Positions 4,288 to 17,793 of a stretch of DNA of 32,162 nucleotides are shown here, piece by piece; position 1 is the first letter of the stretch; every line of letters starts with the position of its first letter. Where the stretch lies: the NCBI GenBank assembly GCA_016934595.1, contig JAFGSM010000188.1:1-32162 (forward strand). The letters are read 5' to 3'. The translations under genes and the position numbers were made by a program. Source of the stretch: a bacterium (GTDB lineage: Bacteria > SZUA-182 > DTGQ01 > JAFGSM01). A model generated the notes under the pieces. It saw only the letters and a list, made by a program, of their open reading frames with translations, was not told the origin of the DNA and did not search any database.

Positions 4288-6762
4288 ATGTTCGAACGTT
4301 TCACAGAAAGGGCTAAACGGACCATAGTTCTGGCCAGAGAAGAGGCCATCAGGCTGGGGGATCCCTATCTCGGCACGGAGCACATACTCCTTGGCCTCAT
4401 ACGCAAGGAGGACGGCACGGCGGTTGAGATATTGAAAAATATAGGGCTCGATCTTAAAGAGATACATTTTGAAGTGGAAAGAAGGATACCGCGTCAGTAT
4501 AACAGACGGCTGGAGCATCAAATAGAGATCCCATTCACAAACCGGGCAAAGAAGGTACTTGAACTGGCTATAGAGGAAGCCAATATGATGGGCCATGACC
4601 GGATCGGAACAGGGCATATACTTATTGGCCTGGTTAAGGAGGGAGAGGGGATCGCTGCCAGTGTATTTGAAGATCTAAGGGTCGATCTGACGGAGGTCAG
4701 GCGTGAGGTTATAAACATGGCGCAGTTTGGCCAGAGAGAGACAAAACCTGAGGTAAAAACGGAGACGCTCAACGAATTTGGAAGGGATATTACCCGTCTT
4801 GCAAGAGAAAACAGGCTGGATCCTGTAATAGGACGTGAGGATGAGATCGAGCGCCTTATACAGATACTGAGCCGCAGGACAAAAAACAATCCTGTGCTCA
4901 TAGGAGAGCCTGGTGTTGGAAAGACAGCCATCGTGGAAGGTCTAGCCCAGAGGATTGTAGACCGTACCGTTCCTATTTTTCTGACTGATAAAAGGATAGT
5001 GGGACTGGATTTAGGCCTGCTCGTTGCGGGGACAAAATACAGGGGGCAATTCGAGGAGAGAATGAAGGCAATAATGAAAGAGATTGCCTTGGCCAAGAAT
5101 GTAATCTTGTTCGTGGACGAGCTTCATACACTGGTAGGCGCTGGAGCGGCAGAGGGGTCTATTGACGCATCCAATATGCTGAAGCCTGCGCTTTCGCGCG
5201 GCGAGATACAATGCATAGGCGCCACAACGCTGAGGGAATACAAGAAATACATAGAGAAAGACGGCGCATTGGAAAGGCGTTTTCAGACGCTAATGGTAGC
5301 TCCTCCATCCCTGGATGAGACAATTGAGATAATAAGAGGCTTGAGAAGCAAATATGAGATGCATCATCATGTCATATTTAATGAAGAGGCCATTATCCAG
5401 GCTGCCAGGTTGTCAGACCGTTACATTACGGACCGCTATCTCCCTGATAAGGCTATAGATGTTCTGGATGAGGCAGGGTCTCGGGCGAGGCTGAAGAATG
5501 CGGAATTCCCCCCTATGCTGAAAGATTTACAGAAGGAATCCTTACAGATAAGGGAGGCCAAGGATGAGGCAATAAAATCCCAGGAATACGAAAAGGCTGC
5601 GCAACTGAGGGACAGGGAACGGAAACTTAGAATGAAGCTGGAGGAAAAGAATCGTCTCTGGCAATATAAACAGAGGATGAAAAAGATCGAGGTAAGCGAG
5701 GATGACGTGGCTCATGTCGTGTCCAAGTGGACAGGCGTGCCTGTGTTTAAGATGGGGCAGGAGGAGTCTGAAAAACTGATTCATATAGAAGATGAGCTGC
5801 ACAAAAAATTAATAGGCCAGGATGAGGCGATTTATGCCATTTCAAGGGCAATCAAACGGTCAAGGGCCGGTGTGAAAAACCCGAACAGGCCCATAGGTTC
5901 TTTCATATTTCTTGGGCCGACCGGCGTGGGCAAAACAGAACTGGCCAGATGCCTGGCGGAATATCTTTTTGGAAGCTATGAGGCGCTTATCAGGATTGAT
6001 ATGTCCGAATACACTGAAAAATTTGCCGTTTCCAGGCTCGTAGGCGCCCCTCCCGGATACGTGGGATATGAGGAGGGCGGGCAGCTCACAGAAAGGGTAA
6101 GGCGCAGGCCATATTCGGTTGTCTTGATAGACGAGATAGAAAAGGCGCATCCTGAGGTGTTTAACATCCTCCTTCAGGTTTTGGAGGACGGCCACCTTAC
6201 TGATTCAAGCGGCAGGTTTGTGGACTTTAAGAATGTAGTCGTGATAATGACCTCCAATGTGGCCGCCAAACATATCGAAAAAAAGGGGAATCTGGGATTC
6301 AATCCCCAGGATGATGAAATAACCAAGTATGAGCAGATGAAAAGGCTTGTCATGGATGAGCTGAAACACATGTTCAATCCCGAATTCCTGAACAGGGTCG
6401 ATGAGATCATTGTATTTCACACCCTTGGCAAGAAACACCTGAGGCAGATCATATACCTTCTTATAGGTCAGCTTAATAAACAATTGAAGGATAGACAGAT
6501 GAATCTGGAGATTTCCAAGGAGGCTGAAGATTGGCTTTTAGAGAAGGGTTATCAGCCCAAATACGGGGCAAGGCCTCTAAAAAGATGCATACAAAGATAT
6601 ATTGAAGATGTCCTGTCAGAGGATATTATAAAAGGCCGGTTCAAGGATGGCGATTGCATCAGTGTAATTGTTCAGGATGGAGGGCTGGCCTTTGTCAAAA
6701 AGATCAGTAGTGTTAAAGAAGAAATCGGCGCAGGCAAACCAGGTTTGATGGGTGAGAATTGA
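4288..6762 (+). CDS. clpC: ATP-dependent Clp protease ATP-binding subunit ClpC (tandem Clp_N repeats, two AAA+ modules, UVR-like motif)
   Basis: 824 aa. N-terminal double Clp_N repeat, two Walker A boxes (GEPGVGKT and GPTGVGKT), and a UVR-like segment [17 protein letters not shown] in the middle domain. Confidence 0.9.
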
Positions 6763-6802: not shown

Positions 6803-9103
6803 ATGGTTAAGCTGAAGCAAGCCATCCTTTTTATCTGTCTATTTATCCTATTTTCCCCGTATCTTGGCGAAGGGGCGGAGGAATATATCCCTGTTCAAGC
6901 TATTGAAATAAATGGGCATCGTGTCATAGAAGAGGATACCATCAGGCATCAGATAAAAACCCGTGTAGGGGATATCTTTAAACCATTTCTCATCCGGCAG
7001 GATATCGTATCTATATATAAGATAGGTTACATCGAGGATATAAAGGTTGAATCCGAGCCATTCGAGGGCGGAATAAAGCTTATATACATCATAAAAGAGA
7101 GACCTTCAATCAGGAATATCATCTTTGAGGGAAACAAAAAGATAAAAATGGATACGCTCAAAGAGAAGATAGACCTGAAAGAGAAAACCTTTCTCGACAA
7201 AGGCGCCATCAATCAAAACATTGGCAAATTGATCCAGCACTATCAGAGCGAAGGGTTTTATCTGGTGGAGATCGATTATAGATTGGAGGATGTCGATGAG
7301 GGATGGGTCAACGTTTATATTATTATCGATGAAGGGAAAAAGGTGAAGATCAGGGAGATTGTTTTCTCAGGGAATGAGCATTTTAAAGACAGGGTACTCC
7401 AAAAGGAGATAGGCACCAAGACTTATGGACTTTTTTCATGGCTTTCAAGAAAGGGTTTTCTTAACAAAGAGGTATTGGATGCAGACCGCTTTAGAATACA
7501 AAATTATTATCTGGACAGGGGATTCATCCACTGCCAGGTTTTTTCACCTGTGGCGGAACTGGACGAAAAAAGGGAACGCCTGACTGTAATGTTTACTATC
7601 AACGAGGGTGATCTTTATCAGATTGAGGATGTATCCATTACAGGGAATTTTATTTACTCCATCGAGAACCTGGAAGAATTTATCAAGGTAAAATCCGGCG
7701 ATGTTTACTCAAGAAGCGCTATAAGCAAGGACACGATCAGCATCACCGATGCCTATGGAGAGAAAGGGTATCTTACAACTGAAGTCTATCCTTCGATTTC
7801 CGAGAAGCCGGATAAAAAAGCCGTTTCCATCATATACAGAATCAAAGAAGGGGGGCCTTCTTATCTGAGATGGATAAATATCTCGGGTAATAACAAGACC
7901 AGGGACAAGGTCATACGAAGGGAGATGAGCGTCAAAGAGGGTGATCTCCTTGATACAAAACGTATGCGTGAAAGCTACAGAAGGGTCAGAAGCTTGGGCT
8001 TTTTTGAGGAGCTGGACATGCAGACAGTTCCAACTATGCTTGAAGACAGGTTTGATCTGGACCTTACAGTTGAGGAGAGGCTTACAGGTCAGATAAGCCT
8101 TGGGGCAGGTTACAGCTCCGAGGATCATCTTGTGGGCACATTCGAGATCAGGCAGGGGAATCTGTTTGGCCGGGGACAGAGGCTTTCAGCAGCGGCTGAA
8201 CTGGGAGGAGAGCGGCAGACATACAGCCTTAGCTTCACCGAACCTTATTTCATGGACAAATCCCTGACGCTGGGAGCGGGGATCTATTACGAGATCAAGG
8301 AATATGACAATTATACAAGAAGCTCCCGAGGGGGTGACCTGAACTTTGGTTTTCCCCTTCCCATGGATTTCCGGTTTTTCACAAACTATAATTATGAAAA
8401 TGTGAATATAACCGAGGTAGACCCTTATATCCTGGCCAGGGATGCAAATAATCAGGAGTTGACCTTTTTTGAGCAAAGCCTGATCGATGCACAAGGGGAA
8501 TCAGACTCAAGCAGCCTTTTGTTCGCCATCTCCAGGGATACCAGGGATGACCGTTTCAGGCCTACGTCAGGGTCGAATAATCGCCTCTCTTTCAAATATG
8601 CAGGCGGGATTTTAGGAGGTGATAACTGGTTCTACAGCACAAGCATTGACAGCGGAATGTATATCCCCCTGCCATGGTGGAAATTTATCCTTGCCCTGCA
8701 TGGAAATTTGACTTATGCCAGCGGGCACGGCGGCAAGAATCTTCCGGTTTTTGAAAGGCTGTACTGCGGGGGCACCAGCACGGTAAGGGGTTACTCTCAA
8801 AGAGGCATAGGCCCGAAAGACATCTATGACAATCCTACAGGCGGAAATAAAAGGGTTGTTTTCAATACAGAGATTCATTTCCCTATCTATGAAGCTATGA
8901 ACGGGCTGTTTTTTTTCGATGCAGGCAATGTGTTTGACGAACAACAGTATTTTTTCGCAGAGTCTCTGAGGATGAGCGCCGGTATCGGCATACGCCTTTA
9001 TACTCCTATGGGTCCCATGCGTTTGGACTGGGGATACAAGCTTTTGAGAAGGGTTACAGAGAGCCCGTCTGACTGGCATTTTGCTATAGGGACATATTTT
9101 TGA
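6803..9103 (+). CDS. bamA: Outer membrane protein assembly factor BamA (POTRA repeats plus Omp85 beta-barrel)
   Basis: 766 aa. Signal peptide, multiple POTRA-like repeats, and a C-terminal beta-barrel ending in aromatic ...AIGTYF. The bamA-skp-lpxD order is canonical. Confidence 0.9.
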   Translation: MVKLKQAILFICLFILFSPYLGEGAEEYIPVQAIEINGHRVIEEDTIRHQIKTRVGDIFKPFLIRQDIVSIYKIGYIEDIKVESEPFEGGIKLIYIIKERPSIRNIIFEGNKKIKMDTLKEKIDLKEKTFLDKGAINQNIGKLIQHYQSEGFYLVEIDYRLEDVDEGWVNVYIIIDEGKKVKIREIVFSGNEHFKDRVLQKEIGTKTYGLFSWLSRKGFLNKEVLDADRFRIQNYYLDRGFIHCQVFSPVAELDEKRERLTVMFTINEGDLYQIEDVSITGNFIYSIENLEEFIKVKSGDVYSRSAISKDTISITDAYGEKGYLTTEVYPSISEKPDKKAVSIIYRIKEGGPSYLRWINISGNNKTRDKVIRREMSVKEGDLLDTKRMRESYRRVRSLGFFEELDMQTVPTMLEDRFDLDLTVEERLTGQISLGAGYSSEDHLVGTFEIRQGNLFGRGQRLSAAAELGGERQTYSLSFTEPYFMDKSLTLGAGIYYEIKEYDNYTRSSRGGDLNFGFPLPMDFRFFTNYNYENVNITEVDPYILARDANNQELTFFEQSLIDAQGESDSSSLLFAISRDTRDDRFRPTSGSNNRLSFKYAGGILGGDNWFYSTSIDSGMYIPLPWWKFILALHGNLTYASGHGGKNLPVFERLYCGGTSTVRGYSQRGIGPKDIYDNPTGGNKRVVFNTEIHFPIYEAMNGLFFFDAGNVFDEQQYFFAESLRMSAGIGIRLYTPMGPMRLDWGYKLLRRVTESPSDWHFAIGTYF

Positions 9104-9270
9104 TGGGTGCGGGTGAGCTTCCTTAATGGACCCTTTATCTCGAAAATAGATTCTATTTTAGTGATTCGTATTGACACCAAAAGTGGGATAGGCGTTTATC
9201 ATTTTATTAACCGTTTTTAGCCTGTTTTTTAAGGCTGAATAATCAAAAACAGGATTAGAGGAGGAATCAT

Positions 9271-9819
9271 ATGAGTTTTAGAATCAAGTCCATATTAATG
9301 TCGGTTTTGATTTTATCTTTTTTTACAGCATTTGTCCCGATATTTACCGGAATAGCAGGCTCAGCCGAGTTAAAGATCGGTTATATCAACAGTCAGAGAA
9401 TCCTTGAGGAGTCAAAGGCAGGCAGGGATGCGACCAAGTCTCTTGAAAATCTCGAGAAGGAGAAAACCGGCCAGGTGGAGCAAAAGAAAAAGGAGATCGA
9501 TGACCTGGAGAACGAGCTGAGAAAAAAGGAATTTGCCATTACCCCTGAGCGGAAAAAGGAGATAGAGGACAATATCAGGCACAAAAGCCTGGAGTTGAAA
9601 TTTTTCGGAGAGGTAAAGGATAAAGAGATCAAGGATCTATATATTAAAAGCCTCAAGAAGGTGGAAAGCCAGGTTATGGAGATTGTCCTGCAGATCGGTC
9701 AGCAAGAAGGTTATGACCTTGTGCTCGGACGGGATGAGAGCGGGATATTGTTCGCCAATCCGAAACACGACCTGACCGAAAAGGTCATACAGATTTATGA
9801 CCAAAAGATGCAGCAATAA
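9271..9819 (+). CDS. skp: Periplasmic chaperone Skp/OmpH
   Basis: 182 aa. Signal peptide then a highly charged coiled-coil-rich sequence. Strong RBS aggagg upstream. Located between bamA and lpxD. Confidence 0.85.
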   Translation: MSFRIKSILMSVLILSFFTAFVPIFTGIAGSAELKIGYINSQRILEESKAGRDATKSLENLEKEKTGQVEQKKKEIDDLENELRKKEFAITPERKKEIEDNIRHKSLELKFFGEVKDKEIKDLYIKSLKKVESQVMEIVLQIGQQEGYDLVLGRDESGILFANPKHDLTEKVIQIYDQKMQQ

Positions 9820-10876
9820 ATCAGAGTTTACGCTTAAGGATCTTGCAGACAGGATCGGCGGCAGGGTCATCGGCGATGAAAAGATAAGCATAAGGGGTGT
9901 TGCCGGTCTGAATGAGGCATGCCCAGGAGAAATCGCCTTTTTTGCCAATCAAAGATACAGGCCATTGCTGGCCAGTACCCGTGCATCAGCCCTTATTGCC
10001 TCTGAAGAGGAACCTTTTTTTAAAGGGCCTGTCATTCAGGTCTGCGATCCATACCTTGCGTTCGCCAAGGTATTGGAGATATTCTATCCCTGTTTAGAGC
10101 CAGCGACAGGGATCCATCCGGATGCAGTTATACATCCGGATGCAGTGATAGCGGAGGATGCAAGCATACAGGCAGGGGCTTTCATAGGAAGGGGGGTGCG
10201 TGTCGGCAGCAAGGTGCATATAATGTCGTGCTCGGTTGTGGGAGAGGATTCAGTGATCGGGGATTGTTCCCTGCTTTATCCAAATGTCACGCTATACCCT
10301 GAAACAGAATTAGGTGAGCGGGTTATTATCCACGCAGGTTCTGTCATAGGCAGCGACGGATTTGGTTATGCAAGACAGAACGGTATGCCCTACAAGATTC
10401 CCCAAGTAGGAAGGGTTGTGATTGAGGATGATTGCGAGATCGGGGCAAACGTATGTATAGACAGAGGTACACTGGGCGATACAAGGATCGGCAAAGGGAC
10501 AAAGATCGATAATCTCGTCCAGATCGCCCATAATGTTGTATTAGGGCCTTATTCTGTCATTGTATCCCAGACAGGAATATCCGGCAGCACCCAGGTAGGA
10601 AGCGGTGTAATACTTGCAGGCCAGACAGGTGTCGCAGGTCATATAAAGATCGGTGATGGTGTTGTTGCCGCTGCAAGGTCGGGTATTACAAAAGACATCC
10701 CGCAGGGGCAAACGATCGCAGGCTTTATGGCGATGCCTGCAAATGAATGGAGAAAATCAGAGGCGGTCTACAGGAACCTGCCTGAGATGCAAAAAAGATA
10801 CAGGGAACTCCTGAAAAGGGTAGAGTCACTGGAGGCTGTTCTTCAAGCCGGAGGCCATGCCAAGGGCGGCAGTTAG
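9797..10876 (+). CDS. lpxD: UDP-3-O-acylglucosamine N-acyltransferase LpxD (left-handed beta-helix)
   Basis: 359 aa. N-terminal LpxD-specific domain (FTLKDLADRIGGRVIGD), hexapeptide repeats (IHPDAVIHPDAVIAEDASI...) and a C-terminal helical tail. Overlaps the skp end by 23 nt. Confidence 0.9.
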   Translation: MTKRCSNKSEFTLKDLADRIGGRVIGDEKISIRGVAGLNEACPGEIAFFANQRYRPLLASTRASALIASEEEPFFKGPVIQVCDPYLAFAKVLEIFYPCLEPATGIHPDAVIHPDAVIAEDASIQAGAFIGRGVRVGSKVHIMSCSVVGEDSVIGDCSLLYPNVTLYPETELGERVIIHAGSVIGSDGFGYARQNGMPYKIPQVGRVVIEDDCEIGANVCIDRGTLGDTRIGKGTKIDNLVQIAHNVVLGPYSVIVSQTGISGSTQVGSGVILAGQTGVAGHIKIGDGVVAAARSGITKDIPQGQTIAGFMAMPANEWRKSEAVYRNLPEMQKRYRELLKRVESLEAVLQAGGHAKGGS

Positions 10877-10967: not shown

Positions 10968-11120
10968 CTTGCTTTATATGAAAATGATCGAACAATGCTT
11001 TGTTTTTATTCATTTTCATGCTTCGTTGTGACTGTAAGGTCATGGGGGTTACTTAGCAATTTAATTATTTGAGTGTAACCAAAATAGAACATTGTTGCTT
11101 GTTCCAATTTTCCGGACATA

Positions 11121-11155
11121 CTGGATTCCGGCTTTCGACGGAATGACAAATAAGA
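11121..11155. repeat. Border repeat copy A: ctggattccg-N10-gaatgacaaataag
   Basis: Shares ctggattccg and gaatgacaaa(a)ta with 16765-16799. Contains a small inverted repeat attccg...cggaat. Lies just 3' of the AAA ATPase gene. Confidence 0.5.
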
Positions 11156-11178
11156 AATAGCACCATTTTGGTTACAAT

Positions 11179-12477
11179 CTAATTATTTTTGGTGGATTCA
11201 GTTTCTGATTTTTTTCTTGTCAGAAGCCATTTCCACAAAGGCACAAACTTTATATTCCTGCCATTTGAATCCTCAATTGAATCATAATCCCATGTAATTA
11301 CCGATAAGTCGTCACAATTTAGCTCTTCGCTTGCATCTATCAAAGATCTTATTTCCCTCTTTTTCACTGCCATCTCTTCTATTTGATAACAGACCTGTAT
11401 GAGATTTTTGACAGTCAATCCATCCCTTATAATAAAATCAACCTCTTTGTTGTTTTTGGTTTTATAATAAAAGACATCTTTATTTGGTTTATATCCATCT
11501 CTCAAAATCTCAAGGAAGACAAGATTTTCCATCAACCTCCCTGTATTTTGTGAGAACTGAAAGGATTTTGCCAGGATAAGGCCATTGTCCACAATATAGA
11601 TTTTCTTTGGGGACTTGATTTGCTCGCCAATTTTAAAAGAGAACCTGTTTAGTGAGAAGAATAGATAGGCATCTTCAAGATATCCCAAATAACTCTGAAC
11701 CGTGCCGGTGCTATTGAATTCAAGGGTATTTCTAATCTTTGTAGAACTAAACTCAGAACAAAAATTGCTTATCATGTACAATGCCAGATCATACATCTTT
11801 TGAGGAAATCTCACCCTGTATCTCTTAACAATATCTTTAAATAAAATGGCGTCAAAAAGTGTTTCCAGATATGTTCTGGTGTCAAGATCATTCATAACAA
11901 TCTCAGGAAACCCGCCATTCTTCAAAAAGCAGTCTAAGTGATTTAGAATCTTTCCTTTCATTTCAGGGATAATATCTTGATCTTTCTCCATCCTGACATT
12001 TTTGCTTCCGAGGAATTCACTGAAACTAAAAGGCAGAATCTCAATCGGCACATATCTTCCTGTTAATGCGGTTGCCAATTCTTTACTTAAGAGCCCTGCA
12101 TTTGATCCGGTCAAAACTAGATTATATCCTCTCCTTTGAAGCTTATTGACAAATAATTCCCAATTTTCTAAATTCTGTATCTCATCAAAAAAGATGAGAT
12201 CATGTTCTGGATAAACCTCGAAAATACCTTTAACAATATCATCAGTTGAAGCCTTTATAAGATTCTCATCGTCAAGGTTTAAATAGGCAAAGTTGCTTTT
12301 GTTTAATAGAAGAAAAGAAAATACGGATTTTCCAGCCCTCCTCGGACCGGTAATCACCTTTATCAGGGACGAATCCAAGAAATGCCTTGCAAAATCAAGC
12401 TTTTCGCGTAAAAGATAATTGCGTGAAAGTAGCTTTTCTTTCTCCTTCTTGTGTTGGATTATAAGCTCTTTTATCAT
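11179..12477 (-). CDS. AAA+ ATPase, DUF4143/COG1373 family (predicted ATPase)
   Basis: 432 aa with Walker A GPRRAGKS and Walker B-like DEIQ, matching the AAA_14 plus DUF4143 C-terminal architecture. The gene looks noticeably AT-richer than its neighbours (estimated by eye, not computed). Confidence 0.8.
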   Translation of the reverse strand: MIKELIIQHKKEKEKLLSRNYLLREKLDFARHFLDSSLIKVITGPRRAGKSVFSFLLLNKSNFAYLNLDDENLIKASTDDIVKGIFEVYPEHDLIFFDEIQNLENWELFVNKLQRRGYNLVLTGSNAGLLSKELATALTGRYVPIEILPFSFSEFLGSKNVRMEKDQDIIPEMKGKILNHLDCFLKNGGFPEIVMNDLDTRTYLETLFDAILFKDIVKRYRVRFPQKMYDLALYMISNFCSEFSSTKIRNTLEFNSTGTVQSYLGYLEDAYLFFSLNRFSFKIGEQIKSPKKIYIVDNGLILAKSFQFSQNTGRLMENLVFLEILRDGYKPNKDVFYYKTKNNKEVDFIIRDGLTVKNLIQVCYQIEEMAVKKREIRSLIDASEELNCDDLSVITWDYDSIEDSNGRNIKFVPLWKWLLTRKKSETESTKNN

Positions 12478-12575
12478 ATCTTAATCATATACTGGATATA
12501 ATTTTATATTTTTGTTCAATACAGTAACAATACCATATAAAATCATTATGTCAAATTCATGTTTTGATTTATTTT

Positions 12576-12698
12576 TGATGGCCTCGTAAAAAGTCTAAAA
12601 CGCCCCTAAAAATACGTTTAATATAATAAATTTGATATATATTTTGGCGATGTAATTGTTTTTCCTCAGCATCAAAATTACTTTTTACGAGGCCATCA
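12576..12698. mobile_element. MITE-like small repeat element, family A, full copy with 19-bp perfect terminal inverted repeats (tgatggcctcgtaaaaagt)
   Basis: Left TIR at 12576-12594; right TIR actttttacgaggccatca at 12680-12698. The internal about 85 bp recurs at about 85% identity at 32076-32162. A solo TIR-like copy is at 16918-16935. Confidence 0.6.
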
Positions 12699-12784
12699 TT
12701 TTTAACCCCTGAAACATGGGGCGTATTTTCTCTGTGCGCTCTGTGGTCTCCGTGGTGAATTATTACAGTATAAGGAGAATACAG

Positions 12785-13693
12785 CTACCCTGTGCAATAC
12801 CTGAATACGCGTCTTCCTACATTGATCGATTCCATCTCAAGCTCATAGGCAAGGGTGATTTCGGTGTTGGTTGAAAAGCCGCAAACATTGCATTGTATCT
12901 GTCCCCTGTTTTTTACGTAGCAGCCTGTGGTTATAGTGCCGTCCGGTTCAATGCTTGCGATCATCCAATCCTTGCACCTCTTGGTCCAATCATTGGACTT
13001 CAGGGCATCAAGCGCCTTGAAGGAGTTAGTCAGCGGCCATCCCTCCCTCTTCATCCTTATCAGTTCATCCAGCACCCGAACCCTTTTATCGGATGACAGC
13101 ATCAAAGGGTCTGCCTTTTCATAAGGATAGAAAAACTGTATGGTCACGCCCTTGACCTTCCCCTTCAGGAATCTTACCATGTCAGGTATTTCATTCCAGT
13201 TAAGCATGTTTATGGTAGTGTTTACGTAAAGGTTGGGGTGATTGCTTGCCTCAATTTTTTGGATTACCTGATCAAATATATCCCTGCCTCTTATGTGGTT
13301 ATGTGTCTCTTTTAGCCCATCCAAACTTACCCACAGGCTGTTTGAGTCAATATCCAGGGATATTGTCCCGTTTGTTGTGACGCCAACGCTGAAGAAGTAT
13401 TTTTTCGCTTCATTGACCACGTCATTGAGGCCGTATTGCCCATTCCTCCATAAAAACGGCTCACCCCCTTCTATAAGCAGTATCCTGATCCCCATATCAT
13501 ACAGTTTTTTCAAAACTGCCTGGATCTGTTTGAAATCCATTTGAGGAAGGTTTTCATGCCAGAAAGGGCAATGCCTGCATTTCAGGTTGCATTTATGTGT
13601 GATCTTGAACCCTGCAAGAAGCGGGGTCTTTTTGCCGAGCCACCGTGTCTTAAAGTAGTATCTTAAGAAATAGAAAAACCAGCCACTTTCCAT
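12785..13693 (-). CDS. Radical SAM enzyme (SPASM/twitch-clade) with a C-terminal auxiliary Cys cluster
   Basis: 302 aa. CNLKCRHC gives the CxxxCxxC motif, IEGGEPFL is a glycine-rich SAM motif, and the C-terminus reads C-x18-C-x9-C-x2-C (twitch-like). RBS ggggaaagaag upstream. Confidence 0.85.
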   Translation of the reverse strand: MESGWFFYFLRYYFKTRWLGKKTPLLAGFKITHKCNLKCRHCPFWHENLPQMDFKQIQAVLKKLYDMGIRILLIEGGEPFLWRNGQYGLNDVVNEAKKYFFSVGVTTNGTISLDIDSNSLWVSLDGLKETHNHIRGRDIFDQVIQKIEASNHPNLYVNTTINMLNWNEIPDMVRFLKGKVKGVTIQFFYPYEKADPLMLSSDKRVRVLDELIRMKREGWPLTNSFKALDALKSNDWTKRCKDWMIASIEPDGTITTGCYVKNRGQIQCNVCGFSTNTEITLAYELEMESINVGRRVFRYCTG

Positions 13694-13768
13694 CTGAAAA
13701 TCCCTTCTTGGTATCTTCTTTCCCCTTTGAGAATAAAATATTCATGGGTGTTTCACCTGATTATCCAC

Positions 13769-15721
13769 TTATGACAGATCAGTGATCTGCCTGTAAACCT
13801 CTTCCGCTTCAAGGAGGAAGCAGGGGTTTAAACCGTATAAACGGAAAAGCCAGCATCCGCCTCTGCACTCAGAAAGATGCGGGCATCTTAGGCAGCCTTC
13901 CTGCAAATCTTCGGGTATGTCCTTGCGAAATGATGCAAATCCATCCGTCCAGATATGTTGCATCGAATCCTTTCTGCAGTCACCTTCCTCTGTCTTCCTG
14001 GATGTTTTCACAGGGCATCCCTGCACTATGCCATTCGAGTTAATGCAAAAGGTGTTCCAACCACAGCCGCAAAAGAACGGGGCAGGGCGAAGGAATGGCT
14101 CAAGGGCTCCGAGATATCCGAATAGCTCCCCTGCCTCAACGGCAAATCCCCGCCTTCTGGCCTCCAAAATAAACCTGAAGGAATCCTTGACCGTCTCATG
14201 CTGATTGCGCAAGGGCTGGCCGTTGTCAAAGATACGGGGCTGGATCTGCAAGAGATTTGCCCCTGCCCGAAAAGCATCTTCGGTCAGTTTTGGAAATTCC
14301 CTGAGGTTTTCATCAAGGAGTATTGAGGACACGCAAATCCTTGGCGCGCCTATATCATGGAAGAATTCTATGGCCCTGATCCCCCGCTCATAAGAATCCT
14401 TGGAGTCCCTTATCCTGTTTTGCGTTTCACCATAACCATCCAGTGTTATGACCACAGAGTCAAACTTTGCATCGGACAGGGCTGCCACGTTTTCCTCAAC
14501 GGCATAGCCGTTTGTGGTAAGGCCCACCCTTATCCCTTTTTCTTTAGCATAGCGGGCTATTTCAAAAAGGTCTTTGCGAAGCAGAGGCTCTCCGCCGGTT
14601 AAAGATAGAAATCCGCAGCCCATATCAGCCAGATCATCGATGACCTTTTTTGCCTCTGATGTCTCAAGTTCCTGTGGGGTAGGATGCCCAGCCACTATCT
14701 CACAGTGGCCGCATTTAAACTGGCATTTATCTGTTATCACCCACTGCACATATTGGGGGCTGAGTTTGCCCTCCTGTAAATCCTGCTTGTATTTATTGAT
14801 AAAACCCTCTGAAGGAAGAACCTCCGCCTGAGGTCTTGGGTATTGATCTTTAGTGGTAAATGCCTCAGTGGCTTTTTTTGCCTCTTCGTGCGTTATTTTT
14901 GCCTCTTCATGCCCTATCTCTTTTGATTTTGCGGTTTCCGATTTTTCCTGTGTTTTGATCATCCTTTTTATATTATCGAGAAAAGGCGTCAAAAGGTCTA
15001 AAGGAAACGGGAAAAGGATGGTCGATCCCTTGTTTGTGGATATATCACGAAGGGTCTGGAGATACCTGAGCTGCAGGCCATGCGGATTGCTTGAGAGTAT
15101 CTCGCCTGCCTCTGCAAGGGTCCGGGATGCCTGATATTCGCCCTGGGCGTCTATAAGCCTTGCCCTTCGCTCACGCTCCGTCTCGGCCTGTTTGGCCATG
15201 GCCCTTTTCATCTCCTCAGGCAGTGTGACCTCCTTGATCTCCACCATAGTGATATTGATGCCCCACTGACTTATGTGCACGGATATGATCTCCTGCAGGT
15301 GTTTATTTATCTTTGCCTGCTGGCTCAGGAGTTCATCCAGTTCCACCTGACCCAGCACACTCCTCAATGTGGCCTGGGCAAGCAGGAAGGTGGATTGATA
15401 GATGTCCTGTATATTGATAATGGCCATTGCCGGATCAGAGACATGAAAATAAACGACTGCGTCCACCGTGACAGGGACATTATCCCTCGTCATTATATCC
15501 TGACGGGGCACATCTATGGACACCAGGCGCAGATCCACCCTCTGTATACGGTCTATCAGCGGTATTAGAATGACCAGCCCCGGGCCTTTTGTGGATAGAA
15601 ATTTCCCCAGGCGGAATACGACGGCTCGTTCATATTCTTTGAGTATCTTAAAGGCCGATCCAATGACGGCTATAGAGCCTAATATCAGCAATAATATTTT
15701 TATATATACAAGATTCATCAT
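13769..15721 (-). CDS. Fusion protein: N-terminal TM helix plus stomatin/SPFH (band-7) domain, linker, then C-terminal radical SAM with a full SPASM domain
   Basis: 650 aa. Residues about 1-250 are a classic stomatin-like SPFH domain (EYERAVVFRLGK..., ...EMKRAMAKQAETERERRA...). Residues about 320-650 carry CQFKCGHC (CxxxCxxC), LTGGEPLL and a 7-Cys SPASM (CGCGWNTFC...C..C...CLRCPHLSEC.GGC). Strong RBS agggagga upstream. Confidence 0.85.
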   Translation of the reverse strand: MMNLVYIKILLLILGSIAVIGSAFKILKEYERAVVFRLGKFLSTKGPGLVILIPLIDRIQRVDLRLVSIDVPRQDIMTRDNVPVTVDAVVYFHVSDPAMAIINIQDIYQSTFLLAQATLRSVLGQVELDELLSQQAKINKHLQEIISVHISQWGINITMVEIKEVTLPEEMKRAMAKQAETERERRARLIDAQGEYQASRTLAEAGEILSSNPHGLQLRYLQTLRDISTNKGSTILFPFPLDLLTPFLDNIKRMIKTQEKSETAKSKEIGHEEAKITHEEAKKATEAFTTKDQYPRPQAEVLPSEGFINKYKQDLQEGKLSPQYVQWVITDKCQFKCGHCEIVAGHPTPQELETSEAKKVIDDLADMGCGFLSLTGGEPLLRKDLFEIARYAKEKGIRVGLTTNGYAVEENVAALSDAKFDSVVITLDGYGETQNRIRDSKDSYERGIRAIEFFHDIGAPRICVSSILLDENLREFPKLTEDAFRAGANLLQIQPRIFDNGQPLRNQHETVKDSFRFILEARRRGFAVEAGELFGYLGALEPFLRPAPFFCGCGWNTFCINSNGIVQGCPVKTSRKTEEGDCRKDSMQHIWTDGFASFRKDIPEDLQEGCLRCPHLSECRGGCWLFRLYGLNPCFLLEAEEVYRQITDLS

Positions 15722-15761
15722 TTTTTATTTTCCTCCCTATGATTTATATAAAATCTTTATA

Positions 15762-16784
15762 TCAGAGTTTGCCTCCCAATCCAATAAGGTTCATAACAAA
15801 CCATAAAAGCCCCATGATTGAAAATATGGAAAAGATCACAGACAAAAGGCCGTATATGGAAAGCCAATGAAACCGTTTTTTGCGCAGGTATTCCTTCCCT
15901 TTTTGCCTCATGTTCACTGTGCGTGAGAAGTCTGATAGAAGCCAGTATCCGTCTCCGTTGACCAGCGGATTCATAATAATGCTCCACCTTGTGTATTGCA
16001 GGATGAGAAGCGGGGTTACATAGTATTCAGCCGCAGGGTAATAGATTGCAAGGGCAACGAGCAATGAATTAAGGCCCATGTCCATAAGGATGCCCGCTGA
16101 GTTTATTAGCAGGCGGATATTTCTTGGAAGGCACCAGGCTGCGTGCGTGTCCATATATACGGCAGGGAAAAACCAAAGGAATGTGAAACCAAGTCGCGGG
16201 GCAAAATACTTCCTTGCGCTGAGATAGTGTCCCAATTCATGCAGGATGATCGGGATGATGGAAATAAGCCCGACTATCAATGCATCATACCATCTTCCAA
16301 GACGGAATGTGCGCGCAATATTTTGAAAATACTCAATTTGTATAGCAGCCAGCAGAAAAAACAGGAGGACGAAAGGGGCGATGTGTATATCGTCCTGTTG
16401 ACCCGACTTGGTGATTTTGCCCTCCCTTGGAGAGACAATGGCTCCCTCGCGGCGGAGATTTGCGATCAATCCGTTGAGTTCCTTTTGATCGATCTTGTAT
16501 TTTGTGCATAACGGGACAACAGGCATTCCAGCGTTCAGTTCCATTAGAAGGCGTAATGTGAGCCAATCCACATGGAACAGCCCCTTCGAAGGTGTGCGGA
16601 TCCATATTGTGCCGTCATCCAGGAAGCCGTACTCGAACCGGAGGGATTGATTATAGCTTTTTCTCTCAGGTTCAGTGTAGGCAGGATGTGGTGACGGACT
16701 GCCTGAAATTTTCTGCTGCAAAAATGGCATATTCAAGATTTTCTTATTTTCCTTATTTAAAGCGCTGGATTCCGTGTCAGGCAC
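15762..16784 (-). CDS. Membrane zinc metalloprotease, M50 (site-2 protease) family, with an N-terminal cytoplasmic PqqD/RRE-like domain
   Basis: HELGH in a TM helix and NPLVNGDG in a later TM helix match the M50 HExxH plus LDG motifs. N-terminal segment HVDWLTLRLLMELNAGMPVVPLCTKYKIDQKELNGLIANLRREGAIV resembles PqqD-like peptide-binding domains (inference). The start may be the internal Met (MPFLQQ...) rather than the GTG at 16784. Confidence 0.7.
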   Translation of the reverse strand: MPDTESSALNKENKKILNMPFLQQKISGSPSPHPAYTEPERKSYNQSLRFEYGFLDDGTIWIRTPSKGLFHVDWLTLRLLMELNAGMPVVPLCTKYKIDQKELNGLIANLRREGAIVSPREGKITKSGQQDDIHIAPFVLLFFLLAAIQIEYFQNIARTFRLGRWYDALIVGLISIIPIILHELGHYLSARKYFAPRLGFTFLWFFPAVYMDTHAAWCLPRNIRLLINSAGILMDMGLNSLLVALAIYYPAAEYYVTPLLILQYTRWSIIMNPLVNGDGYWLLSDFSRTVNMRQKGKEYLRKKRFHWLSIYGLLSVIFSIFSIMGLLWFVMNLIGLGGKL

Positions 16785-16799
16785 TGAATGACAAAATAG
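16765..16799. repeat. Border repeat copy B: ctggattccg-N11-gaatgacaaaatag
   Basis: Matches 11121-11155. Overlaps the annotated GTG start of the M50 gene. Confidence 0.5.
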
Positions 16800-16917
16800 G
16801 GTGAAACCGGCTTTTTACAAATCCATCAATTCTCAAAGTTTTTATTTCTGTTGACCGATATAAAAGTTAGAACAGTTTAACTTGTAAATTATCAATTGTC
16901 CATAGACGGCTGATTTT

Positions 16918-16935
16918 GATGGACTCGTAAAAGGT
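16918..16935. repeat. Solo TIR-like copy of the MITE family A terminus (tgatggactcgtaaaagg)
   Basis: 16/18 identical to the family A TIR tgatggcctcgtaaaaag. No matching right end nearby. Confidence 0.4.
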
Positions 16936-17019
16936 TTTTACCGGCTTTTTAAATTGCGTCAGGATTGATAAATACTTTTAAAATTGTGGTCGCGAGATCA
17001 CGTGGATTGGGAAGAAACT

Positions 17020-17793
17020 ATGACACACCCTTCAGACAACATATTCGAGCTTTTGACCCATCACCTGTCTGACAACGTGCTGGTAAAGATCAATATATTT
17101 GGGCTGGACATGAGCATCACAAAATACGTGGTCTTCATGTGGATCATATCCGGCGGGATTTTTCTATCTCTCTATATCCTGGCAAGAAAATACAGGGGGC
17201 GGGGCATAAGCGCCCCTGACCGCACCATGACCCTGATCGAGACCTTTGTAGGATTTGTAAGGGATGACATTGTGAGCCCTTTTATAGGGCATGAAAGGGA
17301 GAGGGCTTACCTTCATTTCTTCTGCACCCAGTTTTTATTCATCCTTGCCTGCAACCTGGTCGGCCTTATTCCGAAATCGGTCACAGTCACATCGAACCTT
17401 GCGGTCACAATGGGGCTTGCCCTGGTGACCTTTTTTTTCACGCAGGTCTATGGCATGGTGAGCCGGGGGCCTATTTCCTACTGGAAACACCTGGTCCCCG
17501 ATGGCGTGCCGGTTTTGCTCGCCCCGATAATAGCCCTCAATGAATTCATAAGCCTGTTCAGCAAGCCTTTTGCCCTCATGATCAGGCTTTTTGCAAACAT
17601 GCTTGCGGGGCATATCGTCATATTTGTCATCCTGTATCTGGTCATCATGTTCAGAAACCTGTTTCTGGGGGTCTTTACCGTACCTATCGCTGTGGCGGTT
17701 AGCCTCCTTGAGATATTCATCTGTGTTTTACAGGCATATATATTCACTTTCCTCTCAGCTATATTTGTGGGCATGGCAGGAGAGGCACATTAA
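17020..17793 (+). CDS. atpB: F-type ATP synthase Fo subunit a
   Basis: Multi-TM protein with the conserved C-terminal region ...LFANMLAGH.... Start chosen at ATG 17020 (MTHPSD) after RBS gggaag; the ORF track begins at a TTG at 16984. Confidence 0.9.
   Translation: MTHPSDNIFELLTHHLSDNVLVKINIFGLDMSITKYVVFMWIISGGIFLSLYILARKYRGRGISAPDRTMTLIETFVGFVRDDIVSPFIGHERERAYLHFFCTQFLFILACNLVGLIPKSVTVTSNLAVTMGLALVTFFFTQVYGMVSRGPISYWKHLVPDGVPVLLAPIIALNEFISLFSKPFALMIRLFANMLAGHIVIFVILYLVIMFRNLFLGVFTVPIAVAVSLLEIFICVLQAYIFTFLSAIFVGMAGEAH

Follow-up and report, generated by a model that had tools for sequence, protein, structure and literature searches.

We analyzed a gene on the minus strand of a 32,162-nt stretch of bacterial DNA (contig JAFGSM010000188.1 of assembly GCA_016934595.1; the window, hereafter, refers to this whole stretch), and our results indicate that it probably encodes a cytoplasmic RiPP recognition element (RRE; RiPP, a peptide made on the ribosome and modified after its translation) fused to a polytopic, M50-like zinc metalloprotease, which would bind the leader of multi-core precursors, with the leader being cleaved. 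The evidence is a protease half with invariant catalytic motifs in or at predicted membrane helices, an N-terminal domain with the predicted fold of an RRE, and a gene neighborhood, shared with related loci, that includes a stomatin, peptide-modifying enzymes and leader-bearing precursors. A fusion of a leader-peptide-binding domain to an intramembrane protease had been put forward in an earlier annotation of the window made from its letters and translated frames (the sequence-only reading). This architecture is supported by our analysis but is not categorically new, since the daptide protein MpaP already joins an RRE to a site-2 protease (S2P) in one chain and is described as a leader peptidase that works within the membrane and depends on its RRE (Ren et al. 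2023, PMC10028931).

Results

A divergent family of intramembrane metalloproteases

The open reading frame (ORF) at positions 15,762-16,784 of the minus strand was confirmed, with 340 aa if counted from its GTG codon, and both motifs that the sequence-only reading attributed to its product lie where they had been placed. The NCBI counterpart, JXL19_09770 (P0001), a hypothetical protein of an unclassified bacterial metagenome-assembled genome (MAG), begins at TTG 16736 and has 324 aa; we consider this codon the likely start of the gene, and all residue numbers given here are counted from it. A database search returned 47 full-length homologues with 36-75% identity, all without annotation, and 19 full-length loci are found among GTDB species representatives, which is far beyond chance. 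In the family alignment (38 sequences spanning 36-75% identity), conservation is absent over about the first 26 residues, and residues H166, E167, G169, H170, N256, P257, D262 and G263 are unchanged throughout.

The full-length AlphaFold2 model, built from the family alignment (mean predicted local distance difference test score, pLDDT, 88.5; predicted template modeling score, pTM, 0.82), shows an S2P core fold. The HELGH motif belongs to the C-terminal portion of helix 160-174 and lies inside the hydrophobic segment 146-173; a beta hairpin (residues 181-196) comes after this helix, as it does in M50 proteases, whereas NPLVNGDG bridges helix 234-254 and helix 262-271. That is, an HExxH motif lies inside a transmembrane (TM) helix and an NxxPxxxxDG motif precedes a later helix, which is the M50 arrangement; by comparison with the latter motif, D262 is presumed to be the third zinc ligand. 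The distribution of Lys and Arg residues fits an N-in topology, with eight positive charges in the loop 255-290, and therefore the N-terminal domain, the HExxH motif and D262 would all face the cytoplasm. An NCBIfam scan matched two families, both of RiPP intramembrane HExxH proteases and both far under their cut-offs, i.e., daptide_HExxH (NF041824; 50.8 bits over residues 165-333 and profile positions 157-345, equivalog cut-off 300) and YydH/LiaK (NF058609; 48.2 bits for aa 134-321 against positions 55-240 of 246, cut-off 225). The sequence evidence for the protease half is thus weak, yet it points in one direction only, and the predicted structure is stronger. Taken together, the M50 site-2-protease call of the sequence-only reading holds, with HELGH inside a membrane helix and NPLVNGDG at a helix junction.

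A 422-aa protein from Bacteroidota (locus L035) matches the daptide model at positions 13-338, including its RRE part, with 114 bits, and its protease domain is homologous to that of the window family (hhalign probability 99.3%, E 3e-20), although the N-terminal domains of the two show no detectable sequence relationship. We therefore assign the window protein to a divergent, unannotated branch of a broader RRE-S2P superfamily. The L035 locus itself (7430-10705, Aquimarina) is another uncharacterized context of the architecture, with the daptide-type RRE-S2P encoded directly after a 667-aa protein that has weak squalene-hopene-cyclase and polyprenyl-synthase matches.

The N-terminal domain has the predicted fold of an RRE

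The soluble N-terminal part comprises about 119 aa from the TTG start (about 135 aa from GTG). The sequence pattern previously quoted for it, LTLRLLMELNAG...ELNGLIANLRREGAIV, is present and conserved, and the conserved residues of the domain include F34, Y36, G37, D40, D41, W45, P49, T60, L61, L67, N68, G70, K79 and Y80. In the full-length model, strands 34-38, 44-47 and 53-56 precede helices 58-68, 73-80 and 84-96, with pLDDT values of 92-97 over this block, and a model of the domain alone reached a mean pLDDT of 91.2 (89-97 across the beta-sheet and helices). This order of three strands and then three helices, over about 85 aa, is typical of RREs and not of classical winged helix-turn-helix (wHTH) domains. 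Consistent with this, comparison of the predicted fold against solved structures found the domain to be more similar to RREs than to generic winged helices, with the best matches being, in order, TfuB1 with leader (7.8), TigE (7.7), ThcOx (7.2), TbiB1 with leader (7.2) and PqqD (6.0), and with TbtB, McbB, TglI, PbtF, MibB, MccB, LynD, MadB, SuiB and a second PqqD ranking after these within the top 33. The PqqD/RRE-like domain of the sequence-only reading is hence recovered at the level of predicted structure, and the RRE assignment is supported by predicted fold and genomic context rather than by sequence.

In a profile search of 1.84 billion representatives, the complete domain occurred, apart from fragments, almost exclusively as the N-terminal part of members of the same family with 300-340 aa. 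The sole protein of different length that carries most of the domain (profile positions 5-69) N-terminally, P0122 (479 aa), may represent the same RRE type joined to another enzyme.

Stomatin and tailoring enzymes in related loci

We surveyed the genomic context of 26 distinct related loci from six or more phyla, using phmmer and a regex screen. A stomatin-type SPFH gene adjoins the protease gene in 25 of the 26 loci and is kept even where no modifying enzyme was recognized (L007 and L033). The stomatin of the window, like that of 13 other loci, forms one protein with a radical S-adenosylmethionine (SAM) enzyme that has a SPASM domain (radical SAM/SPASM; the fused enzyme is denoted rSAM_A), and thus the co-occurrence with such genes suggested by the sequence-only reading is confirmed. 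The fusion of the window consists of an N-terminal TM helix and SPFH domain (aa 1-255, nt 14,957-15,721), a low-complexity, Lys/Glu-rich linker of ~60 aa, and the radical SAM/SPASM part (aa ~314-650), with Pfam matches to Band_7 (2e-37), Radical_SAM (3e-27) and SPASM (4e-5). Its SPFH part scores 222 bits against stomatin cage chains and 131 bits against QmcA, MftC is the best NCBIfam match of rSAM_A, and the whole protein is 63% identical to its L001 orthologue.

Most loci also contain a second radical SAM/SPASM enzyme of about 368 aa (rSAM_B), the nearest NCBIfam models of which, nif11-class maturase 3 and GDL-motif maturase, are both matched under cut-off; in some loci an ATP-grasp peptide maturase replaces or accompanies rSAM_B. 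No radical SAM or ATP-grasp protein in the related loci has an N-terminal extension able to be an RRE, none is present in the rSAM_A fusion, and no PqqD gene is listed near the protease in the related loci. Therefore, the protease carries the sole RRE of these clusters.

Precursors share a leader but differ in their cores

An adjoining precursor of 170-300 aa, consisting of a conserved N-terminal leader followed by repeats, is encoded in 20 of the 23 loci that could be assessed. The overall leader consensus (hhE.LE.R.ST / M..hhhE.LE.R+sT.sL) is plesiocin-like. More specifically, loci with an ATP-grasp gene (e.g., L004, L027, L029, L031 and L032) have the leader MKKKLFIEDLEKRRSTSPLF, the radical SAM-only loci L002, L006 and L008 have KKKL[FL][IFV]E[DE]LE.R[RK]STS, and the clade of the window has M[AP]HIFFE.LE.R.STQ.L; as a possible ligand of the N-terminal domain, the leader peptide of interest is MSHIFFEKLEKRQSTQSLLP. 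The repeats are TT[ML]A[LM]GEEG in ATP-grasp-containing loci and KY[AG]PxP or x-Y-G-[VI]-x-x-P in radical SAM loci, including L011 and L028, where an ATP-grasp gene is also present. That is, the leader is kept across phyla, while the cores and the tailoring enzymes vary. The features of group 2 graspetides are found in L004, L027 and L029-L032, and not in the window or its clade. The precursors match no NCBIfam model, and a profile built from mixed clades (A3) had poor sensitivity (5 matches).

Several individual precursors deviate from these patterns. The precursor of L011 (3-809) combines KYAPP/IYSVP cores of the radical SAM type with TTxxxGEEG in one protein, and that of L028 (3-467) combines radical SAM-type cores with GIGEGG only, which suggests hybrid radical SAM/graspetide products. 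The cores of L004 (5261-5788) are TTLAMGEEG only, though radical SAM and ATP-grasp genes are both present. The L008 precursor (6299-6679) is interrupted, with the leader in an ORF of 38 aa and three KYAPPNP repeats in a second ORF in a shifted frame; either the assembly is wrong here or the gene is a pseudogene. At the usual precursor position of L025 (4248-5201), between the radical SAM/SPASM and ATP-grasp genes, a 317-aa protein starts with a stretch resembling a signal peptide and contains about eight DKYLGxPHxW repeats, without the usual leader. Precursor copy number also differs between close relatives; L001 (11991-13976) has three precursor genes in a row, one of which is cut to 23 aa, and L017 has two.

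The cluster of the window appears to be divided between contigs

The minus-strand array of the window consists of the protease gene, a gap of 40 nt, the stomatin::rSAM_A fusion gene, a gap of 75 nt, a gene for a 302-aa radical SAM/DUF3463 protein, a 300-bp spacer of low GC content and an AAA_14/DUF4143 ATPase gene (Table 1). An ATP synthase operon diverges upstream of the protease gene, a synteny shared with L009 and L013. The sequence-only reading had placed the protease in one operon with two radical SAM enzymes. The stomatin-fused radical SAM/SPASM enzyme is indeed a conserved partner, but the radical SAM/DUF3463 protein, found only in L012, L013/L020, L017 and L019 among the related loci, is a clade-specific neighbor and not a core component. 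In the closest relatives, L013, L012, L017 and L019, rSAM_A and the radical SAM/DUF3463 gene are separated by rSAM_B together with one or two precursor genes, and the two adjoin each other in the window because these interposed genes are missing there. Homology to L013 in blastn ends at window position 13,778 (L013 5579) and resumes at 13,685 (L013 7783), and thus about 2.2 kb are absent from the window; the break starts exactly at the start codon of rSAM_B.

Searching with a precursor profile specific to the clade gave 51 proteins; two of them come from the same MAG as the window, on one 9.9-kb contig, i.e., JXL19_07360 (P0148, E 1e-61) and JXL19_07355 (P0149, E 7e-55). In addition, rSAM_B is followed directly by P0148 on a 2.2-kb contig (L049, run SRR13394437, region 246-1928), the upstream flank of which is unrelated to rSAM_A. 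With rSAM_B and the precursors placed elsewhere in this MAG, on a different contig, the cluster is split over contigs and not lost, if the MAG binning is right. A deletion that left an orphan protease was considered and rejected, given the two precursors in the same MAG and the rSAM_B-precursor contig with a different upstream flank.

A core of ~30 nt, TAAAAAGYCGRTTTYRCCYTATTTTGTCAT, is found upstream of the protease ORF (window 16,788-16,817) and again downstream of P0148 on L049 (2132-2161), with a half copy, AAAAAGCCGGTAA, at 16,938-16,950 of the minus strand, 130 nt further upstream in the window. On the basis of this recurrence, the element could be a shared control site with two to three instances. 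Promoter and terminator scans of 12,300-17,100 gave nothing above shuffled expectation.

Table 1. Features of the window that are discussed in the text; residues are counted from TTG 16736.
Feature	Position	Strand	Remarks
Putative RRE-site-2-protease fusion gene	15762..16736	-	324 aa, NCBI TTG call; mechanical ORF reaches GTG 16784; ATG at 16730
RRE-like domain core (predicted), residues 31-97	16446..16646	-	three beta strands, then three helices
HELGH zinc-binding/catalytic motif (H166, E167, H170), residues 166-170	16227..16241	-	family-invariant
NPLVNGDG motif, residues 256-263	15948..15971	-	N256, P257, D262, G263 invariant
Predicted membrane-embedded M50/site-2-protease-like catalytic domain, residues 120-317	15786..16379	-	helices 120-140, 149-174, 205-232, 234-254, 291-317; beta hairpin 181-196
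Stomatin::rSAM_A fusion, conserved partner	13769..15721	-	40 nt downstream of protease gene
Radical SAM/DUF3463 protein, 302 aa, PTO1314/HpnH-like	12785..13693	-	79% identical to L013 7775-8680
Junction	13686..13777	-	92 nt vs. about 2.2 kb (368-aa rSAM_B and precursor) in L013, L012
Upstream element TAAAAAGCCGGTTTCACCCTATTTTGTCAT and flank	16788..16832	-	recurs just downstream of precursor gene P0148, L049 2117-2161

Two other regions of the window stand out by composition. Region 11,000-12,780 is low in GC (0.35 vs. ~0.47), carries the ATPase gene (11,179-12,477, minus strand) and, in the AT-rich spacer after that gene, an inverted repeat, GGCCTCGTAAAAAG...CTTTTTACGAGGCC, at about 12,575-12,700; it resembles an insertion that separates the cluster from lpxD. 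Region 1-640, upstream of lysS, is also of low GC content (0.35); tandem repeats of 7, 15, 21 and 28 nt overlap one another at 66-132.

Discussion

Proposed mechanism

By analogy with MpaP, lasso B proteins, EpeP and PqqD/MftB, we infer leader binding, precursor proteolysis, the order of the steps and a role in export as follows. The RRE would capture the conserved leader of the large multi-core precursors; the most likely ones in this organism are JXL19_07360 and JXL19_07355, whose genes lie with that of the second radical SAM/SPASM enzyme on another contig. The radical SAM/SPASM enzymes, which themselves lack an RRE, would modify the cores at the Y-G-[V/I]..P motifs, with one of them tethered to the membrane through its fused stomatin scaffold. 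The active site, on the cytoplasmic side of the membrane, would then receive the precursor from the RRE, and the protease would remove the leader there; it could possibly also separate the cores and may pass the product to the membrane or periplasm. More speculatively, the stomatin may form a scaffold or cage around the protease, comparable to HflKC-FtsH and stomatin-STOPP.

It is also conceivable, if somewhat unlikely in our view, that all of these components act as one membrane-bound assembly line, in which a stomatin ring or cage, bearing the radical SAM C-termini in the clade of the window, encloses the RRE-protease, a single RRE holds the leader while the repeats are modified, and the products are released at or through the membrane. 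If true, it would provide the first case of a natural-product pathway scaffolded by an SPFH protein, and S2Ps would gain their first SPFH partner.

Evidence to be set against leader binding and cleavage

Several observations weigh against leader binding and cleavage by an RRE-protease fusion. With respect to the N-terminal domain, the structures behind the RRE call are predictions, and no sequence method found PqqD: Pfam and NCBIfam searches with the protein, the 38 relatives and the isolated N-terminal domains (32 members) gave no match to PqqD (PF05402) or an RRE up to E 10, profile searches of the PDB with the domain returned no RRE, the matches being weak ones to BlaI, Z-alpha and the winged helix of MCM (E 0.015-0.5), and an hhalign comparison of its profile with the N-terminal domain of the daptide-type relative L035 was negative. 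Some members also have weak Pfam matches to HTH_28, HTH_29 and MarR_2 (best E 4e-6). With respect to the protease half, the window protein scores 16.7 bits against Pfam M50 (PF02163), below the gathering score of 27.2; 33 of the 38 relatives match this model at E<=1 (best 4e-6), and the protease represents a divergent M50-like family and not a member of PF02163. With respect to the substrate, no precursor turned up in the 32-kb window when flanking small ORFs were inspected, when all six frames were scanned for the leader motif, or when tandem repeats and the patterns KYAPP and Y-[GA]-P were sought, and the link between the protease and JXL19_07355/07360 hangs on the MAG binning. S2Ps usually cleave membrane-associated segments, and most of the precursors look soluble; the precursors of the window's clade, however, have GGFFGGLFGG stretches. 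Finally, the LFIEDL leader of plesiocin is bound directly by the ATP-grasp enzyme, and therefore conservation of the leader need not be due to the RRE.

Alternative explanations

Alternatively, the RRE might chiefly serve as a leader-binding chaperone in trans for the radical SAM enzymes, the role that PqqD and MftB have, with the stomatin ring holding both and the protease being a late, RRE-independent peptidase or a membrane anchor. Such an arrangement would agree with the protease carrying the sole RRE, with rSAM_A and rSAM_B proteins that begin directly at the CxxxCxxC core, and with the SPFH-radical SAM fusion, which enforces co-localization at the membrane; PqqE/PqqD and MftC/MftB are known to operate in this way, and rSAM_A has MftC as its best match. 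However, the catalytic residues of the protease are invariant, so that proteolysis is apparently under selection, the fused RRE drives proteolysis in MpaP and lasso B proteins, and the RRE-protease persists in loci with only an ATP-grasp enzyme, even though ATP-grasp enzymes of group 2 do their own leader binding. Hence, we consider it improbable that the RRE works mainly in trans.

We give similarly little credence to the possibility that the protease is a housekeeping or regulatory partner of the stomatin, that is, a protease-SPFH unit (cf. stomatin-STOPP/NfeD and HflKC-FtsH) that acts on membrane proteins or on the stomatin, with the N-terminal domain being a generic winged helix for interactions and the RiPP-like genes occasional neighbors. 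The SPFH gene is the most constant neighbor, including in the two loci without a recognized modifying enzyme, the SPFH domain is a close stomatin homologue, and the window retains an intact protease and stomatin without a local precursor, all of which would fit such a role. Against it, leader-bearing precursors adjoin the protease in most of the assessable loci, the stomatin is fused in 14 loci to a radical SAM/SPASM enzyme of the peptide-maturase type, the protease families closest to this one are specific to RiPPs, the N-terminal domain matches RREs best in fold and not generic winged helices, and precursors exist in the same MAG.

Lastly, a membrane-tethered DNA-binding regulator, with a winged-helix N-terminal domain released or controlled by intramembrane proteolysis, could account for the weak HTH_28, HTH_29 and MarR_2 matches and the PDB profile matches mentioned above, but we regard it as very improbable because these matches span the helical half only and are below family thresholds, the three-strand/three-helix order is of the RRE type, the mean net charge of the domain across the family is about 0, and an M50 protease cutting its own tether is without precedent. 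We therefore favor an RRE that binds the precursor leader and is coupled to leader cleavage by the fused protease.

Comparison with known systems

MpaP and the window protein share an N-terminal RRE followed by an intramembrane HExxH S2P, a RiPP cluster context and homologous protease domains. They differ in that the window protein reaches only about a sixth of the equivalog score, with only the protease half aligned and no detectable sequence relationship between the RRE halves, and in that the window has no daptide tailoring genes and no ELExMEAP/C-terminal Thr precursors; the partners of the window family are a stomatin, radical SAM/SPASM or ATP-grasp enzymes, and multi-core precursors of 170-300 aa. 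Other M50 proteases of RiPP pathways include EpeP/YydH and TglG/TmoG, with EpeP/YydH being paired with a radical SAM enzyme (PMC10885120). The likeness to YydH/EpeP (LiaK) is that of an intramembrane M50-type protease that matures a radical SAM-modified peptide (PMC10885120); however, the match covers the membrane part only, with the RRE of the window protein outside it, and the partner of YydH/EpeP is a radical SAM epimerase acting on a short, single-core peptide. Unlike SpoIVFB, RseP and MjS2P (PF02163), the window protein has no PDZ or CBS domains, falls below the Pfam gathering score, and presumably acts on a leader-tagged precursor and not on an anti-sigma or pro-sigma factor.

An RRE also delivers the leader to a protease in lasso B proteins (B1 RRE and B2 protease, fused or split) and to an RRE-less radical SAM/SPASM enzyme in PqqD-PqqE and MftB-MftC, and three of these proteins, TfuB1, TbiB1 and PqqD, rank high among the structural matches of the N-terminal domain described here; the lasso protease, however, is a soluble, cysteine transglutaminase-like enzyme, and PqqD and MftB are not fused to proteases. 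As for the precursors, plesiocin (PsnA2) is a group 2 graspetide with an LFIEDL leader and TTxxxxEE cores, and its leader is bound directly by the ATP-grasp enzyme PsnB (bioRxiv 10.1101/2021.03.09.434688). The ATP-grasp relatives have, like PsnA2, an LFIEDL-type leader and repeated TTxxxxEE cores (TT[ML]A[LM]GEEG). PsnB alone suffices in plesiocin biosynthesis, whereas the RRE-protease and stomatin are added here and the leader is extended (LE.R+STS.LF), and the clade of the window has swapped the ATP-grasp enzyme and TTxxxxEE for radical SAM/SPASM enzymes and Y-G-[VI]..P cores with an HIFFE.LE leader.

Finally, stomatin-protease operons are known from PH1511-PH1510 STOPP/NfeD, QmcA-YbbJ and HflKC-FtsH, in which a cage-forming SPFH protein is encoded beside a membrane protease and presumably organizes it, as may be the case here. 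The partner in the window is an M50-like metalloprotease with an RRE, has no NfeD domain and is not FtsH, and the stomatin-radical SAM fusion of 14 loci sets these clusters further apart. Searches of the accessible literature for SPFH proteins or stomatins together with radical SAM enzymes or RiPPs yielded nothing relevant, no description of a stomatin-radical SAM/SPASM fusion was found there, and the same holds for the leader outside plesiocin.

Implications

As far as the searchable literature shows, the protease family, its near-obligate pairing with a stomatin (including the stomatin-radical SAM fusions) and a family of multi-core precursors with a plesiocin-like leader across different tailoring chemistries are new. 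To our knowledge, RRE-guided intramembrane leader peptidases were previously known only from daptides. The results presented here suggest that the same design is used in phylogenetically wide, uncharacterized clusters of Planctomycetota, Elusimicrobiota, Omnitrophota, Patescibacteria and unclassified MAGs, which have a leader, an RRE-protease and a stomatin scaffold in common but exchange ATP-grasp for radical SAM chemistry, as well as the core motifs. For the organism of the window, three genes annotated as hypothetical would be correctly annotated, and its cluster would be recognized as divided across contigs. For the family, the shared components provide a handle for mining multi-core RiPPs that is independent of RiPP class, and a defined trio of leader, RRE and protease that is potentially reusable for engineering. 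The clusters also offer a testable case of an SPFH protein organizing biosynthetic enzymes together with an S2P, which bears more broadly on the role of bacterial stomatins.

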